From NCBI GenBank assembly GCA_964436855.1, contig CAYTED010000004.1, positions 3,627 to 67,626 of the forward strand: a stretch of DNA of 64,000 nt, written 5' to 3'. Source of the DNA: an uncultured Bdellovibrionales bacterium (GTDB taxonomy: Bacteria; Patescibacteriota; Minisyncoccia; Moranbacterales; UBA1568). The stretch's first letter is position 1. Each line of letters opens with the position of its first letter. Both the position numbers and the translations under genes were made by a program. The notes beneath the pieces are model-generated. The model was not told the DNA's origin, did no database searches, and saw only the letters and a program-made list of their open reading frames with translations. Below are positions 5,723 to 58,894 of the stretch, piece by piece.

Positions 5723-7018
5723 ATGCACAAAACAAAAAAATTTCCCGACGGTTTTTTGTGGGGCTCCGCCACGAGCTCGCATCAGGTCGAAGGAGGGAAT
5801 CACAATGACTGGAGCGAATGGGAAAAGAAAAACGCCGTCCGTCTCGCCCGCGAATCATCAAAACACTTCTCACAGTTCCCATCATGGGAATTCATCCAAA
5901 AAGAAGCGGAGGATCCGAAAAACTATCTCTCCGGAAACGCTTGCGATCATTACCACCACTACGAAGAAGATTTCGACATCGCAGCATCCCTCGGCCACAA
6001 TGCCCATCGTTTCAGCATCGAGTGGTCGCGCATCGAACCCGAAGAGGGCGTGTTTGACGAGCAAGAAATTGAGCACTATCGAAATGTTTTGCTCGCCCTT
6101 CGCAAACGCAATATCGAACCATTTGTCACGCTCTGGCACTGGACTATTCCCGTCTGGCTCGCCCAGAAAGGCGGCTGGGAAAACAAACACTCCGTCGAGC
6201 ACTTTCTTCGATACGCCGAAAAAATAGTGACCGAATATCGCGACCTTGTGAGATTTTGGATGCCACTCAATGAGCCCGGCACCTTCGTCGGGATGAGCTA
6301 TATCCAGGGAGCGTTTCCCCCTCAGAAGCGCCTCGCGCTCTTTGCCGCCAACCGCGTCTTCAAAAATTTGATGCGCACATACCGGAAAACCTACTCCCTG
6401 ATAAAAAAATACGACCCGGACTCGATCGTCGGAATGTCTCACTATGCCGTGTACATGTTCCCCAGTACGAGCAGCCTCGCAAACAAACTCCTCGTAAAAA
6501 TACTCGACTACATCCGCAACTGGCGATTCCTTGATTCGATCAATCAGACAAACGACTTTATCGGTATCCAATACTACCATACCGACTGCATTGCTTTCGC
6601 ACCGCTCGGAAACGGCACTTGGGGCTTTATCAATAAAAAAGAAATCAATCCCTGGGGAAAAAATCGAACCGATATGGGTTGGGACATCTATCCGGAAGGG
6701 ATGTACCACCTGCTCCGGCGCGCCGCAAAATACAAGAAGCCGATCTACATCACCGAAAACGGACTTGCGGATATGAGAGACGCGTTGCGAGAAGACTTTA
6801 TCAAAGAAAACCTCCTCCAAGTACACCGCGCTATTACGGAAGGCGTTGATATTCGCGGTTACTTTTATTGGTCACTCCTCGACAATTTCGAATGGAACAA
6901 GGGGTACTGGCCACGCTTTGGACTCATCTCCTTCAACAAAAATACTCTCAAGCGCACCATCCGACCAAGCGCCTACTCCTACAAAAAAATCTGCGACACG
7001 AATACGCTTGAAATATGA
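5723..7018 (+). CDS. Glycoside hydrolase family 1 beta-glucosidase
   Basis: N-terminal FLWGSATSSHQVEG signature. NEP acid/base motif. ITENG nucleophile motif (YITENGLAD). 431 aa. Confidence 0.85.
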   Translation: MHKTKKFPDGFLWGSATSSHQVEGGNHNDWSEWEKKNAVRLARESSKHFSQFPSWEFIQKEAEDPKNYLSGNACDHYHHYEEDFDIAASLGHNAHRFSIEWSRIEPEEGVFDEQEIEHYRNVLLALRKRNIEPFVTLWHWTIPVWLAQKGGWENKHSVEHFLRYAEKIVTEYRDLVRFWMPLNEPGTFVGMSYIQGAFPPQKRLALFAANRVFKNLMRTYRKTYSLIKKYDPDSIVGMSHYAVYMFPSTSSLANKLLVKILDYIRNWRFLDSINQTNDFIGIQYYHTDCIAFAPLGNGTWGFINKKEINPWGKNRTDMGWDIYPEGMYHLLRRAAKYKKPIYITENGLADMRDALREDFIKENLLQVHRAITEGVDIRGYFYWSLLDNFEWNKGYWPRFGLISFNKNTLKRTIRPSAYSYKKICDTNTLEI

Positions 7019-43193: not shown

Positions 43194-43241
43194 AGTATTT
43201 TTTGGATTACACCTTTAGTACAAACAAAAAAAGAGTGCTTA

Positions 43242-43400
43242 GAACCTGTTCGAAACCTCTCTTTCGTTACGAAAATTTTCATTTTCGAGCGAAAAATTTG
43301 GAGAACGAGGAAGGCTATAAGGAATATAACCTGACGAGTTATCCGAATTTTACAGCCGAAAATGAAATTTTGCAGTAAAAAACGGGTTTTGAACAGGTTC
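43242..43400. repeat. Upstream-of-rpsL structured spacer: a 16-bp long-range inverted repeat (43242-43257 and 43385-43400) enclosing CGAAAATTTTCATTTTCG-type AT repeats
   Basis: gaacctgttcgaaacc vs ggttttgaacaggttc (15/16 complementary). Confidence 0.45.
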
Positions 43401-44204: not shown

Positions 44205-44239
44205 ACCGAAAAATAAGATAAAAGATAATGGATATTGGT

Positions 44240-44319
44240 GAGGACCTTCGCGTTTGAGTTCAATTCAAGCCGCAGAGACTCCGCAGCAAAAAAGTCCACC
44301 AAACACGAGAATCCTACGG
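44240..44319 (+). repeat. Copy R1 of an approximately 80-nt direct repeat (partner at 46355-46487)
   Basis: gaggaccttcgcgtttgagttcaattcaagccgcagagactccgcagcaaaaaagtccaccaaacacgagaatcctacgg. Lies about 60 nt upstream of rpmB. Confidence 0.5.
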
Positions 44320-44377
44320 TATTGCAAGAAAAGCGTTTCTATGGTACCTTTTTTCAAGTAATAACTCAAGACCGATT

Positions 44378-44678: not shown

Positions 44679-45077
44679 ATGCTCCAAGAATTCAGACAAT
44701 TCGCGCTCCGCGGCAATGTCATCGATCTCGCAGTCGGTGTCGTTATCGGCGGCGCCTTCGGCAAAATCGTTACCTCGCTCGTCAACGATATCATTACCCC
44801 AATCATCGGTATCCTTCTCCGGGGGATCGATGTCTCGACACTGGCTTTTATCGTCGGAAACGCAAAAATAAACTACGGGTCGTTTCTGCAATCCATTATC
44901 GACTTTCTTATCATCGCGCTCGCGATTTTCGTCGCGATCAAACAAATCACCAAAGTTCGAAAAAAACTCGGTCTCGAAAGCGAGCCGACGCCGGAAACCA
45001 CCAAGGAATGTTCGTATTGTCTCTCCAAAATCGACAAACGCGCCTCCCGCTGCCCGCAGTGTACCTCTTCGCTCTAA
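44679..45077 (+). CDS. mscL: Large-conductance mechanosensitive channel MscL with a C-terminal Cys4 zinc-ribbon
   Basis: MLQEFRQFALRGNVIDLAVGVVIGGAFGKIV MscL signature. C-terminal CSYC...CPQC. Confidence 0.85.
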   Translation: MLQEFRQFALRGNVIDLAVGVVIGGAFGKIVTSLVNDIITPIIGILLRGIDVSTLAFIVGNAKINYGSFLQSIIDFLIIALAIFVAIKQITKVRKKLGLESEPTPETTKECSYCLSKIDKRASRCPQCTSSL

Positions 45078-45097
45078 AAAAAGAATCAACAAAAAAA

Positions 45098-45121
45098 CCG
45101 GCGATAAAGCCGGTTTTTTTA
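45098..45121 (+). terminator. Rho-independent terminator after mscL
   Basis: ccggcgataaagccgg followed by TTTTTTT. Confidence 0.55.
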
Positions 45122-45130
45122 TTACACCAT

Positions 45131-45186
45131 CCCTCCTGCTCCCCTTTCTAAGGGGAGCTGCCGAGTCTTCAGGGTTGAGGGGTGTG
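45131..45186. repeat. Copy of the two-hairpin palindromic repeat family
   Basis: ccctcctgctcccctttctaaggggagctgccgagtcttcagggttgaggggtgtg. Confidence 0.55.
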
Positions 45187-45214
45187 TTGAATTGGTGAAT
45201 GAGATTTGATATTA

Positions 45215-45460
45215 CTACGAATGATACGAAACGATATATTTTCCGCTCGTACTCTCATACGTCAGCACGAAGCGATGCTTGTATCCGTCCTGAAACGGAG
45301 CCGTTCCCTTATTCTTCGCGTAATAAAGAAATACATCCATTTCATCCTCATACAAAGCGCTCAAATAATCCGTAGCGTCCGACAATCTGGAAACTTCTTC
45401 GTCATACCACACGCTCCCTCCGGACACGGAAACTTCTTTCAAAGTTTTTTCTTCCGACAT
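45215..45460 (-). CDS. Hypothetical small acidic protein
   Basis: ORF only. Start chosen at MSEEKTLKEV. No motifs. Confidence 0.3.
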   Translation of the reverse strand: MSEEKTLKEVSVSGGSVWYDEEVSRLSDATDYLSALYEDEMDVFLYYAKNKGTAPFQDGYKHRFVLTYESTSGKYIVSYHS

Positions 45461-45578
45461 AGTTTTGTTTCTTAAAAAAATTATCTGTCGGGGTATCGGG
45501 AATCCCTGCCCGCCATACTTTCGCCTCTTCGGCGGATGTAGGCGGGGAACCGGAACGACAACTTTCATCCTAAAAATG

Positions 45579-45649
45579 TCGGGGTAAGCGGAATTGAACC
45601 GCTGCTACAACCACCCCATGGTCGCGTACTACCACTATACTATACCCCG
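45579..45649 (-). tRNA. tRNA-Pro (anticodon GGG)
   Basis: Acceptor CGGGGTA/TACCCCG. Anticodon arm CGACC-ATGGGGT-GGTTG. T-arm GCGGTTCAATTCCGC. Confidence 0.8.
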
Positions 45650-45757
45650 ATAAGAAAAACACAAAACTCAAACCACAAAAGCCAAACAAAAGCCAAATAA
45701 GTCGTCTCGAGTAATTCCTAACCATCCCTATTCCAAGCCGTCATAAGACTCTTCATT

Positions 45758-45836
45758 CTGTCATCCCGGGCTTGATACGGGATCCAGAAAAAATCAGTTT
45801 GTGGAGCCTGGATCCCCGCCTTCGCGGGGATGACAG
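45758..45836. repeat. Hairpin-pair palindromic element (family TGTCAYCCCCGC..GCGGGGATCCAG), locus 1
   Basis: ctgtcatcccgggcttgatacgggatccag + 20 nt + ctggatccccgccttcgcggggatgacag. The two units are in inverted orientation. Confidence 0.55.
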
Positions 45837-46081
45837 AGGACTAACCCAATACCAGTTCAAAACGATTTTTACTCTATCATTCTTTCTAAAAAAAGTGCAA
45901 GGGAGGTCTTATTCAAGACGCTCCCTTCTTCGGACGGCGCGTTGCGCCGCCGGATGTGTCACAAAGGACGCATGGCCAGACAATGCCGATATGTGAACAT
46001 TATCCGCCGCGCCCACTGGTGCAACGCGATATCGGCACGCAGCTTGCGCACGCATCGTGCGAGTTGCCGACGTAAGAATCG

Positions 46082-46222
46082 CTACCGCTGTTCCACCTTT
46101 TCAAACCCGACCTCCTCGTGGAATACCTTCGTCCCGCGGGAAACGGCGATCATTATCTTCTCGATGAGACCCCACACGCGATTTTTCACCGTGCGGTCAT
46201 AGACAACATCCCTACCAGACAT
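46082..46222 (-). CDS. Hypothetical 46-aa protein with a perfect Shine-Dalgarno, inside a GC-rich island
   Basis: AAGGAGG lies 5 nt upstream of the ATG. MSGRDVVYDRTVKNRVWGLIEKIMIAVSRGTKVFHEEVGFEKVEQR. Surrounding DNA is about 58% GC versus about 47% elsewhere. A terminator hairpin sits at 45885-45921. Confidence 0.4.
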   Translation of the reverse strand: MSGRDVVYDRTVKNRVWGLIEKIMIAVSRGTKVFHEEVGFEKVEQR

Positions 46223-46354
46223 GCTTGCCTCCTTGGTTCAATTCTATATTACCCCTGAAAACATCGTTTCAAGGCCGCCATACCGCCCGATTATTCCCGA
46301 GCGAGGAAGAATATTCATCAACAAATACTCTTCCCCACCCGGAAACTTTCTTTA

Positions 46355-46487
46355 GAGGACTTGCGCGTTTGAGTGAAATTCAAGGCGCGGAGAAAGTGGC
46401 GATCGAGGCGTACTACAGAGAGTTACGGTAAGGGCGACACAGAGGCTCCGCAACGAAGAAGTTTGCCAAACGCGGAAGTCCTAATTT
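46355..46487 (+). repeat. Copy R2 of the approximately 80-nt direct repeat, with an approximately 50-nt internal insertion
   Basis: gaggacttgcgcgtttgagtgaaattcaaggcgcggag [49 nt] gaggctccgcaacgaagaagtttgccaaacgcggaagtcctaatttt. Collinear with R1 at about 80% identity. Confidence 0.5.
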
Positions 46488-46774
46488 TGTAAAAGTACAA
46501 AACCCGGCGCTACGGGCCGGGTTGAGGTTCGTTCTGGAAAAAATTGTCTTTTTCTTTTTCCGCGACCCGGCACTCAAAAAATCCGTCCCTCCATAAGGAG
46601 GACAAACTTCTTGAGAAACAGGTTGCGCTGCATTTTTTGCATAAATGTTATAAGAACCGTTTTTCTTATAATCGTCAATTCTACCAGAGAACATTTCTCA
46701 TGTCAACAGCGTCTAAGAAAAAGCAAAATCTGTCTTTCGACGGATCAGCTCTTCTTTTGAGTTATACAAAAAAA

Positions 46775-47392
46775 CTACTCCAGAATCCCGTCCAAGTTTA
46801 CATCGTAAAGAATCTGCTCGGATACGAGACGGTATTTGATGATCTCTTTTTCATCAAACCAGATTTTTATCTCACGCTCGGCTTCTTCGGGTGAATCGGA
46901 GCAGTGAATAAGATTTCGCACCGCGCGATTGTCAAGCGACGAGAGCGCATACGAATCGACCGTCAGGTCTCCGCGAATCGTTCCCACATCGGAGGTCGTC
47001 GGCTCGGTACCGCCCACAAGTTTTTTCACGATCGCAACCGACTGATTCCCCTCAATCACCATTGCCAAAACCGGTCCCGATGTAAAAAAATCAACATTCG
47101 ACTGAATAATATCCTTTCCGTATTCGATTGCTTCTTTTTCGATCGGCATTCCGTGCGCTTTGCGATCCTCCACGATGCGAGTTCCTTTTTTGAGAAACCA
47201 TTCTTCATCTTTGTTGTAGTGCGTCCAGCACTGCTCCGCTTCGGGAAGAAGAAATTTGACCGCAGCAAATTTGAGTCCCGTCCGCTCGATCCGGCGGAGA
47301 ATTTCGCCCATAAGCCCCCGCTGCACGCCGTCCGGCTTGACGATAACGAGTGATCGTTCTTTCTTCGGATGATGCTCCATAAAAATCTTCAC
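46775..47392 (-). CDS. ndk: Nucleoside-diphosphate kinase with an internal insertion
   Basis: LVIVKPDGVQRGLMGEI ... NLIHCSDSPEEAEREIKIWF. About 205 aa versus about 140 typical. Confidence 0.85.
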   Translation of the reverse strand: MKIFMEHHPKKERSLVIVKPDGVQRGLMGEILRRIERTGLKFAAVKFLLPEAEQCWTHYNKDEEWFLKKGTRIVEDRKAHGMPIEKEAIEYGKDIIQSNVDFFTSGPVLAMVIEGNQSVAIVKKLVGGTEPTTSDVGTIRGDLTVDSYALSSLDNRAVRNLIHCSDSPEEAEREIKIWFDEKEIIKYRLVSEQILYDVNLDGILE

Positions 47393-49784: not shown

Positions 49785-49822
49785 GCGAGCTTAAAACAAG
49801 CAATAAGAAAATTATTTCCTCT

Positions 49823-49923
49823 TTGTCACCCCCGCGAAGGCGGGGGTCCAGATTCCACGATCGTTGATTTTTCTTTGAACAAGGAAAGTGATTTCTGGGT
49901 TCCCGCTTTCGCGGGAATGACAG
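49823..49923. repeat. Hairpin-pair palindromic element, locus 2
   Basis: ttgtcacccccgcgaaggcgggggtccag + 42 nt + tctgggttcccgctttcgcgggaatgacag. Confidence 0.55.
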
Positions 49924-49943
49924 AAATGTATCCGATACCACCT

Positions 49944-55721: not shown

Positions 55722-55770
55722 TCAAAAAAACCGATGTCAAGCGGCCACTTCGGTTGTGTTTTTTGTTTTA
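55722..55770 (-). terminator. Hairpin terminator between ftsA and ftsZ
   Basis: aaccgatgtcaagcggccacttcggtt flanked by an A-run and a T-run. Confidence 0.45.
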
Positions 55771-55932
55771 GAGCCTGTCCAAGAAATCCGTATTCTGCTG
55801 CAATTCCATTTTTTTGGCTGCAAAAAGTTCAGATCTCGTCAGGTTATATCTTCATATAGCCCTCCTCCATCTTCACTTTTTTCGCTCAACAACATGGAAT
55901 TTCGCGACGAAAGAGATTTCTTGGACAGGCTC
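55771..55932. repeat. Perfect 18-bp long-range inverted repeat (55771-55788 and 55915-55932) in the ftsA 3' region
   Basis: gagcctgtccaagaaatc and gatttcttggacaggctc. Confidence 0.5.
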
Positions 55933-55949
55933 TTACCGGATTCAGTATA

Positions 55950-58722: not shown

Positions 58723-58894
58723 AGATTTTCCATTAGAAGTTCAATCCCTTTCGATTGTAGCCATTTCTCATCAAACTTTCAATGCATCAATGCGCGGAGA
58801 AAATAACGAATAAGACATTCTTGCTTGCGACGATAAAAGGTTACAGAAACCTCGCAGCACAGCAGCTCGCCAAACGCAGGAGTCTTTCATTTTT

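Follow-up and report, generated by a model that had tools for sequence, protein, structure and literature searches.

A candidate orphan small-protein gene in the conserved ndk–tRNA-Pro spacer of a member of Candidatus Moranbacteria

The ndk–tRNA-Pro spacer

Within the window, the 64-kb stretch of DNA that was analysed, ndk (46775-47392, minus strand) and the gene for tRNA-Pro(GGG) (45578-45649, minus strand) form the upstream and downstream boundaries, respectively, of a 1125-nt spacer, here called the slot. The assignment of ndk draws on a PF00334 match on an identical Logan contig. The spacer is without a Pfam or NCBIfam match, in agreement with the original prediction that no housekeeping gene lies between tRNA-Pro and ndk. 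Searches of the spacer with Rfam 15, at gathering scores and also with E-values up to 10, yielded the tRNA as the sole match, what remained having E-values of at least 0.04 and lying far under the gathering scores.

The stretch from 45900 to 46230, on the 5' side of tRNA-Pro, had been singled out for a GC content of about 58% and, more generally, for an atypical composition. Sliding 330-nt windows bear out the first point, with a GC content of 56.8% against a mean of 47.7% for the whole window, which places the stretch in the top 0.5% of such segments. The broader claim stands only for GC, as the oligonucleotide signatures are ordinary: among 400-nt windows, 39% deviate as much or more in dinucleotide composition (Karlin delta*), and 57% do so in tetranucleotide distance, the measure that had been proposed as a check.

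ORF46 and its predicted product

On the minus strand of this GC-rich region lies ORF46 (MSGRDVVYDRTVKNRVWGLIEKIMIAVSRGTKVFHEEVGFEKVEQR; 46082-46222), a frame of 46 codons that is read here as an orphan small-protein gene on the strength of its translation signals and codon usage. As had been noted from the sequence, its ATG at 46222 is preceded at 5-nt spacing by a perfect Shine-Dalgarno (SD) motif, AAGGAGG (46234-46228, minus strand). The complementary CCUCCUU is present at the 3' end of 16S, and the anti-SD is thus intact. The accompanying statement that SD sequences are otherwise rare in the window is also correct, because, of the 58 long ORFs, 41 lack an SD-like motif and just 4 carry one of at least 5 nt. 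There are 19 AAGGAGG sites in the window, among which an estimated 0.2-0.4 would be expected to be joined to an ATG and an open 46-codon frame; a chance combination of this kind is not vanishingly rare.

The codon log-likelihood of ORF46 is 0.163 per codon, which corresponds to the 58th percentile of 46-codon chunks from real genes and is higher than in 99.6% of 278 spurious small ORFs. At codon positions 1, 2 and 3, GC is 0.59, 0.33 and 0.70, and the last of these values, well over the gene mean of 0.51, counts against the gene reading. The 40 in-frame codons past the TAG score -0.136 per codon and are non-coding-like, and a longer protein made by read-through or frameshifting was rejected on these grounds.

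ORF46 is an orphan. A full HMMER search of 1.84e9 protein representatives returned the query alone, a word-indexed search gave no match, and the protein cluster has one member. Comparisons with Pfam, NCBIfam, PHROGs and PADLOC were all empty, as were those of the read-through form with Pfam and NCBIfam, of the other frames of the GC-rich island with Pfam, and of a neighbouring 117-aa ORF with Pfam, PHROGs and PADLOC. The homology search that had been suggested for the peptide therefore leaves a frame that is coding-like but has no homologue, and without one there is no evolutionary test of coding. The peptide is hydrophilic (GRAVY -0.38; maximal 19-residue Kyte-Doolittle mean 0.92), and AF2 models it as one long amphipathic helix (pLDDT 85), which, being a single helix, is uninformative for fold search. 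The product is probably a soluble, helical, slightly basic peptide.

Transcription signals around ORF46

The slot promoter, TTGACA-17-(TG)TAGAAT (46678-46706, minus strand), begins 69 nt past the ndk stop, agrees with the consensus at 11 of 12 positions and is the sole sigma-70-like site in 45400-47000. The best candidate directly upstream of ORF46, TTGAAA-18-TATAGA, agrees at 9 of 12 positions, misses the final T and is not convincing. The promoter-proximal segment (46490-46671, minus strand) would specify a leader or small RNA about 85-180 nt long that has a folding energy of -63.3 kcal/mol (z -5.55) and no match in Rfam. It contains a 22-codon ORF that lacks an SD (MQKMQRNLFLKKFVLLMEGRIF) and two intrinsic-terminator-like hairpins, T1 (46602-46587, minus strand) and T2 (46523-46501, minus strand), both of which stand between the strong promoter and ORF46.

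The heptamer GCCGGGU (46571-46565) is able to pair with the 5' arm of T2 (46522-46516) over 7 bp (GCCGGGU:ACCCGGC), and this pairing is the minimum free energy structure of the partial, nascent leader transcript. When the antiterminator state is forced on the full leader, its energy is -57.7 kcal/mol versus -63.2 kcal/mol for the terminator state, a gap of 5.5. The leader thus combines an intrinsic terminator between promoter and gene with a mutually exclusive upstream pairing, as attenuators do. The likeness extends to the short leader ORF, which overlaps the upstream pairing partner, and to the enrichment of terminator-like hairpins in slot leaders (12 of 24 leaders, counting that of the window, versus 1.5 expected). 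The differences are that the window leader shows no evident sensor and no logic based on a ligand, a tRNA or regulatory codons, that the downstream gene encodes an orphan peptide rather than a biosynthetic operon, and that the leader is not conserved, nhmmer finding no homologue of it among relatives. Moreover, the CCCGG/CCGGG arms are near-palindromic, so that the alternative pairing could be accidental. The suggestion of a regulatory module is tenable in a vague sense only, in that the leader terminators have alternative pairing.

The 5' UTR of ORF46 contains a 24-bp hairpin with 7 G.U pairs (46288-46345, minus strand; -36.2 kcal/mol, z -7.7), which occurs once in the window. The plus strand reaches only -14.3, and this strand specificity, with the 7 G.U pairs, argues for an RNA made from the ORF46 strand. 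Beyond the stop codon lies a 3' untranslated region of 146 nt (45936-46081, minus strand), GC-rich at 61% and unmatched by HMMs of the slot families described below. It had been taken for a structured region, a description that does not hold, as 45936-46084 folds no better than shuffles (z -0.43 on the minus strand, -1.24 on the plus strand). The terminator that had been placed after ORF46 is present (45888-45927, minus strand), with a hairpin at 45927-45899 (dG -16.6 kcal/mol, z -2.3) followed by TTGCAC TTTTTTT. Its stem abuts a candidate tRNA-Pro promoter, TTGCAC-18-(TG)TAGAGT (45871-45900, minus strand). With its own translation start, a coding-like ORF and a terminator, the region has the parts of the discrete small module that was envisaged.

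The transcript could instead be a non-coding RNA, composed either of the 5' hairpin and the GC-rich body or of the leader RNA alone (46671 to about 46500), with ORF46 and its SD incidental. Such an RNA would account for the succession of the only strong promoter and two terminators, which would release a tidy, well-folded product of 85-180 nt, as well as for the strand-specific structure in the 5' UTR and the lack of homologues of ORF46. It is nevertheless unlikely, given that the codon usage of ORF46 is gene-like where that of the adjacent sequence is not, that a perfect SD stands at the optimal distance from its start in a genome with little use of SDs, that the GC-rich body is no more structured than shuffled sequence and has no Rfam match, and that translated-looking small ORFs occupy the same place in relatives.

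The slot in relatives

Loci of relatives were gathered by ndk scans of genomes and metagenomes (80 plus 80). The order ndk then tRNA-Pro on the same strand is found in 57 of 161 loci, the window's own among the 57, with spacers that are mostly 450-1100 nt long. A comparison for presence or absence had been recommended, and it does not reveal an empty site: in 49 of the 57 syntenic loci, including that of the window, the two genes are 256-1125 nt apart and the boundary signals are the same, and in only 8 is the distance at most 114 nt. By this distribution, the arrangement and its spacer are ancestral in Candidatus Moranbacteria.

Promoters of the TTGACA-17-TATAAT type lie 35-100 nt past ndk in about 30 relatives, several of them at positions 64-68. 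One or more strong-SD ORFs of at least 25 aa are found in 44 of the 57 spacers, again counting the window's own, and the slot of relatives holds one or two ORFs of 60-115 aa. The succession of terminator stem, -35 and -10 just upstream of tRNA-Pro is common to relatives and window. Judged by these shared predicted signals, the architecture of the slot is conserved. In some relatives the 5' half of tRNA-Pro is partially duplicated upstream of the tRNA, which indicates that recombination at tRNA-Pro occurs in the phylum.

The occupants of the slot include family A ('NPN..DT..HGF'), with 22 members and a further 19 proteins from databases, every one annotated as 'hypothetical', and an AF2 model of low confidence (pLDDT 64.5). 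Others are a Cys-rich family and singleton helical ORFs of 49-64 aa. When the family A HMM was run by hmmsearch on every six-frame segment of the window, the top hit had an E of 1.8 and fell outside the slot. Comparison of the window spacer with those of relatives by blastn, tblastx, tblastn and HMMs of six slot ORF families was negative except for the palindromic element described below, and Rfam found no match on the spacers of two relatives. The leader of one relative, L154, resembles that of the window by eye, each having a CCUCC hairpin, a U-run and GCCGGGU, then a CCCGGC terminator, but nhmmer and MAFFT gave no significant alignment and homology is not claimed. Neither could ORF46 be aligned with the L154 ORF.

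The larger ORFs of relatives raise the question of whether the GC-rich stretch is a pseudogene left by the decay of the slot's ancestral genes, in which ORF46 is open merely by chance, a view in keeping with the 146 nt of untranslated GC-rich sequence and the 40-codon in-frame continuation past the TAG. Against it, the window slot gives no match with tblastx or with the HMM of any slot family, and the read-through part scores as non-coding whereas ORF46 scores as coding; decay of this kind is improbable.

The best ndk identity among relatives, in both genome and metagenome scans, is 88%. With no relative above this value a substitution-pattern test is not possible, and with no close relatives gain and loss cannot be ordered. 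Exact-protein look-ups with ORF46, L28, MscL and S12 returned the same organism only, on three Logan contigs essentially identical to the window (100% and 99.99% for the two compared; its DNA is present in runs SRR30303844, SRR12229868 and SRR26835457), while that with ndk returned no record.

Dispersed repeats and the question of an integrated element

Two repeats reported in the spacer are real. R2 (46355-46487; 46351-46491 by nhmmer) is a 133-nt dispersed repeat with 16-nt terminal inverted repeats, AGGACTTGCGCGTTTG and CAAACGCGGAAGTCCT, whose arms are 94% complementary. The window has three copies by nhmmer, the others lying at about 44236-44326 and 58787-58893; the first of these, at 44240-44320, is without a 53-nt internal segment. 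No R2 copy was found by nhmmer in the loci of 160 relatives. The hairpin-pair or palindromic element, placed at 45758-45836 by the original prediction and at 45757-45838 here, lies between the candidate tRNA promoter and tRNA-Pro (z -4.2 and -3.5 on the two strands). A second, inverted copy at 49821-49925 brings the number in the window to two, and a 77-nt copy, 82% identical, is found in an unrelated locus (L112), with partial copies in L058, L106 and L107.

By their sequence features both are dispersed MITE/REP-like repeats. R2 occurs in three intergenic copies and has inverted repeats of 16 nt at its ends. The palindromic element consists of units such as GTTCCCGCTTTCGCGGGAAT and ATCCCCGCCTTCGCGGGGAT and recurs in other genomes of candidate-phyla-radiation (CPR) bacteria. 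Both differ from such repeats in that no transposase partner, target-site duplication or role in phage integration is established for them within the 64 kb. The neisserial dRS3 is a 20-bp unit, ATTCCC(N8)GGGAAT (PMC3898611). Units of the palindromic element (GTTCCC-N8-GGGAAT, ATCCCC-N8-GGGGAT, CCCCCG..CGGGGG) depart from that strict pattern, and the resemblance is by pattern only; one 27-nt unit exactly matches Neisseria gonorrhoeae.

The island had been described as bracketed by repeats. R2 and the palindromic element belong to unrelated families, the island is not enclosed by a pair of direct or inverted repeats, and the idea that flanking repeats mark the ends of an element was rejected.

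For its place beside a tRNA, its composition and its flanking repeats, the region had been suspected to be what is left of a mobile element that integrated at tRNA-Pro, or else a small toxin-antitoxin module that such an element brought along. Like tRNA-targeted genomic islands, it adjoins a tRNA gene and has locally raised GC; there are repeats nearby, and the partial duplications of the tRNA-Pro 5' half in some relatives speak for the same origin. Unlike such islands, it lies on the 5' side of the tRNA, which is the wrong side, and has neither an att repeat (no other match of at least 11 nt to tRNA-Pro exists in the 64-kb window) nor an integrase. The ORFs in or beside the spacer have no Pfam, PHROG or PADLOC match, phages and plasmids gave no blastn match, nothing sets the oligonucleotide signature apart, and the spacer with its boundary signals is ancestral. 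As for a toxin-antitoxin module, no partner gene accompanies the peptide, which is not hydrophobic. A type I toxin was rejected in view of the hydrophilic peptide and its single amphipathic helix, and a type II system in view of the single ORF without a Pfam, NCBIfam or PADLOC match. A consensus scan, which cannot exclude such a site, found no plus-strand promoter-like site for an antisense RNA in 45400-47000. Both forms of this explanation are very improbable.

ORF46 as the occupant of a conserved slot

The region is probably a local version of the conserved slot, in which the lineage-specific ORF46 takes the place of the usual occupants. The slot opens with a strong sigma-70 promoter just past ndk, followed by a leader, often with terminator-like hairpins, then by one or two small ORFs with strong SDs, and it closes where a terminator is fused to the promoter of tRNA-Pro. 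The usual occupants, family A included, are absent from the slot of this genome and may have been replaced by ORF46. The ORF would be translated from its perfect AAGGAGG, and its transcript would end at its own terminator. The mRNA would most likely be supplied by read-through from the slot promoter across T1 and T2, the latter with its competing antiterminator pairing, and the weak proximal promoter may contribute. By insertion, R2 would have entered the leader of the slot, and the palindromic element that of the tRNA, so that together they stretch the spacer to its 1125 nt.

As a short intergenic frame with a strong SD, coding-like codons, a terminator of its own and no homologues, ORF46 resembles other orphan bacterial sORFs. 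It differs from them in that this predicted gene sits in a positionally conserved, promoter-to-terminator slot with varying occupants. A further proposal, rather unlikely, is that the slot is a conserved, strongly promoted and attenuator-gated site of fast small-protein turnover where ORF46 was recently born or captured. If this holds, the slot would serve an episymbiotic CPR lineage as a natural hotspot at which small genes arise or are exchanged.

In an annotation, the GC-rich patch beside tRNA-Pro should be given as a small orphan gene and two repeat families, and not as an island; homology-based annotation misses such small genes entirely. The wider point is modest but real: CPR genomes are tiny, yet in this phylum a dedicated, strongly promoted slot for predicted small proteins without an annotated function is kept beside ndk and tRNA-Pro, and is filled differently from one lineage to the next. 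Should ORF46 and its counterparts prove to be expressed, they would be candidates for lineage-specific roles, be it in host interaction, in the stress response or in association with the ribosome.

ORF46, a probable orphan small gene

The window belongs to a genome of Candidatus Moranbacteria (CPR/Patescibacteria). The nearest ndk proteins among species-representative genomes and metagenomes are at most 88% identical, all labelled Moranbacteria or Moraniibacteriota or coming from mislabelled MAGs, and exact-protein look-ups placed the same organism on three Logan contigs, the two compared with the window being 100% and 99.99% identical to it; there is thus no close relative to compare. The spacer under study spans 1125 nt from tRNA-Pro(GGG) (45578-45649, minus strand) to ndk (46775-47392, minus strand). 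On balance it probably holds a well-signalled orphan small-protein gene, set in a conserved small-ORF slot amid small dispersed repeats of two families.

The gene in question, ORF46 (46222-46082, minus strand), has an ATG start, 46 codons and a TAG stop. Exactly as originally predicted, it is preceded at 5-nt spacing by AAGGAGG (46234-46228, minus strand), a perfect Shine-Dalgarno (SD) match to the CCUCCUU at the end of the window's 16S gene. Such signals are indeed scarce elsewhere, 41 of 58 long ORFs being devoid of any SD-like motif. Under a codon model trained on 48 long ORFs from the window, ORF46 reaches 0.163 per codon, which puts it at the 58th percentile of real-gene chunks of 46 codons and above 99.6% of spurious small ORFs (n=278); scores are non-coding for the 40 in-frame codons past its TAG, as they are for the remaining frames of the surrounding GC-rich island. 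GC content at codon positions 1/2/3 is 0.59/0.33/0.70, a coding-type periodicity with high GC3 that accounts for part of the local rise in GC. Directly 5' of ORF46 is a hairpin of 24 bp, seven of its pairs G.U, that folds on the minus strand only (-36.2 versus -14.3 kcal/mol on the plus strand), an argument for transcription of the ORF strand and for maintenance of the RNA's shape. This internal evidence leans towards ORF46 being coding.

The main rival explanation is that the product is an RNA rather than a peptide. Homology offers the peptide no help: a word-indexed protein search yielded no homologue, HMMER run in full against 1.84 billion representatives matched only the ORF46 sequence itself, its 90% cluster has one member, and it was found in none of 160 relatives' loci. 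The AF2 model of the peptide is one long helix (pLDDT 85).

The island (45900-46230) is GC-rich as predicted (56.8% versus 47.7% for the window, in the top 0.5% of 330-nt windows), with 53% in ORF46 and 61% in the next 146 nt. Its di- and tetranucleotide signatures are ordinary, however, so that the claim of atypical composition stands for GC alone. The terminator hairpin expected after ORF46 is present (45927-45899, -16.6 kcal/mol, followed by a T7 run), whereas the supposed structured 3' region shows no excess of folding over its shuffles (z -0.43 and -1.24).

A conserved slot between ndk and tRNA-Pro

Comparison of loci indicates that the spacer is an ancestral, organised slot and not an insertion. 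In 57 loci, including that of the window, tRNA-Pro follows ndk on the same strand, at a distance of 31 to 1125 nt (mostly 450-1100 nt). Relatives' spacers have two conserved blocks in common. The first comprises the ndk terminator and a near-consensus promoter (TTGACA-17-TATAAT in about 30 loci, 35-100 nt past the ndk stop), and the second is a terminator with its stem directly against the -35 of a promoter shortly before tRNA-Pro. The interval between them holds a leader (about 110-160 nt) and then a small strong-SD ORF or two, at least one such ORF occurring in 44 of the 57 spacers. The slot of the window has the same boundaries: TTGACA-17-(TG)TAGAAT, the only promoter-like site within 45400-47000, starts 69 nt after the ndk stop, and a candidate promoter, TTGCAC-18-(TG)TAGAGT, abuts the ORF46 terminator stem.

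The commonest occupant is family A, of 60-72 aa with an invariant NPN..DT..HGF C-terminal motif, examples of which lie between ndk and tRNA-Pro in L013 (5056-5238), L023 (5963-6175) and L047 (~6789-6992). It numbers 22 members in relatives' loci and 19 database proteins, every one of the latter labelled 'hypothetical'; at least 22 Moranbacteria have it, and the window lacks it. It matches no Pfam domain and its AF2 model is of low confidence; its genes carry a strong SD and consensus promoter. Other occupants of the slot are a Cys-rich family and several helical ORFs, each a singleton of 49-64 aa. None of the relatives' slot ORF families is detectable in the window.

The leader and probable expression of ORF46

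The slot promoter, a strong one, lies 450 nt upstream of ORF46. Since the best proximal promoter (TTGAAA-18-TATAGA) is weak, we can only infer expression, which would probably proceed from the distant slot promoter through a leader bearing two terminator-like hairpins, T1 (46602-46587, minus strand) and T2 (46523-46501, minus strand). The transcript starts as a compact leader (fold z -5.55), in which GCCGGGU (46571-46565) has the same sequence as the T2 3' arm and can pair with the T2 5' arm. This antiterminator pairing is the MFE while the T2 3' arm is still unmade, and once the leader is complete it is only 5.5 kcal/mol less stable than the terminator fold; with arms as nearly palindromic as CCCGG/CCGGG, it could be accidental. 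No homologue of the window leader was detected. Terminator-like hairpins occur between promoter and first SD-ORF in 12 of 24 leaders, the window's included, versus 1.5 expected from shuffles, which makes gated read-through a plausible common theme.

A 22-codon ORF without an SD (MQKMQRNLFLKKFVLLMEGRIF, 46641-46573, minus strand) lies within the promoter-proximal leader and extends across the upstream pairing partner and T1 to a stop immediately ahead of the antiterminator segment. It shares the geometry of a leader peptide but has no obvious run of regulatory codons. In L024, L038 and L057, a common leader about 70-170 nt past the slot promoter has a long-range CCGGCCGGG / CCCGGCCG helix enclosing an A-rich loop, then a CCCGG..CGGG hairpin and U-run; this RNA, which matches nothing in Rfam, is a candidate for a conserved attenuator.

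Dispersed repeats

Both repeats said to flank the island are real, the palindromic element at 45757-45838 and R2 at 46355-46487; the bracketing is not: their families differ, and the island is not enclosed by any repeat pair. R2 has 16-nt terminal inverted repeats and three copies in one orientation (44240-44320, with a 53-nt internal deletion; 46355-46487; 58787-58893). In the minus-strand reading, each precedes a minus-strand ORF by 36-133 nt (M50 peptidase, ORF46 and a YqeY-like gene, respectively), and two directly follow an intrinsic terminator. The degenerate third copy sits between the rpsI terminator and the YqeY/GatB-like gene, and a good promoter, TTGAAA-17-TACAAT, starts at its edge. 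With these copies and inverted repeats, and being absent from relatives' loci, R2 behaves as a young MITE/REP-like element, inserted here in the slot leader.

The palindromic element, positioned between the candidate tRNA promoter and tRNA-Pro, recurs in inverted form at 49821-49925 (z -8.0), and one unrelated locus has an 82% copy. Its units resemble the neisserial dRS3 pattern, ATTCCC(N8)GGGAAT (PMC3898611). Insertion of R2 and this element makes the window spacer the longest of the set. Another palindromic family occurs at 43241-43400, near the S12 gene, and 55770-55933; its arms measure some 80 nt and show 70-77% complementarity.

Surroundings of tRNA-Pro

The original prediction also entertained a remnant of an integrated element, for which the tRNA-adjacent location spoke. 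Against it, the island lies 5' of the tRNA in an ancestral spacer; no tRNA-derived repeat was found in the window, and the island showed no integrase and no phage, plasmid or defence-system similarity. The truly variable side of tRNA-Pro is its 3' side: rpmB follows within about 50-300 nt in most relatives inspected (a few have a 2-3 kb insert instead), whereas in the window the stretch from tRNA-Pro to rpmB (44679-45568) contains an orphan minus-strand ORF of 81 aa (45215-45460) and, on the plus strand, mscL (44679-45077). The toxin/antitoxin-like alternative fares no better: type I toxins are hydrophobic, whereas the ORF46 peptide is hydrophilic (GRAVY -0.38), and it has no partner gene.

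Two further features were seen upstream of tRNA-Pro. In the window, the 11-mer ACAAAAGCCAA forms a perfect tandem duplication (45675-45696), 26 nt upstream of the tRNA 5' end. In L004, L014, L017, L018, L028 and L061, one or two partial copies of the tRNA-Pro 5' half lie within the last ~200 nt before the intact gene, reaching through the anticodon loop (...GGCTGGGGG), each followed by a hairpin and then GGGAATTTTAG; they look like recombination scars or tandem partial duplications.

ORF46 is probably an ordinary, though well-signalled, small gene, and of more interest is what came up alongside it, a conserved slot whose small proteins may turn over fast.
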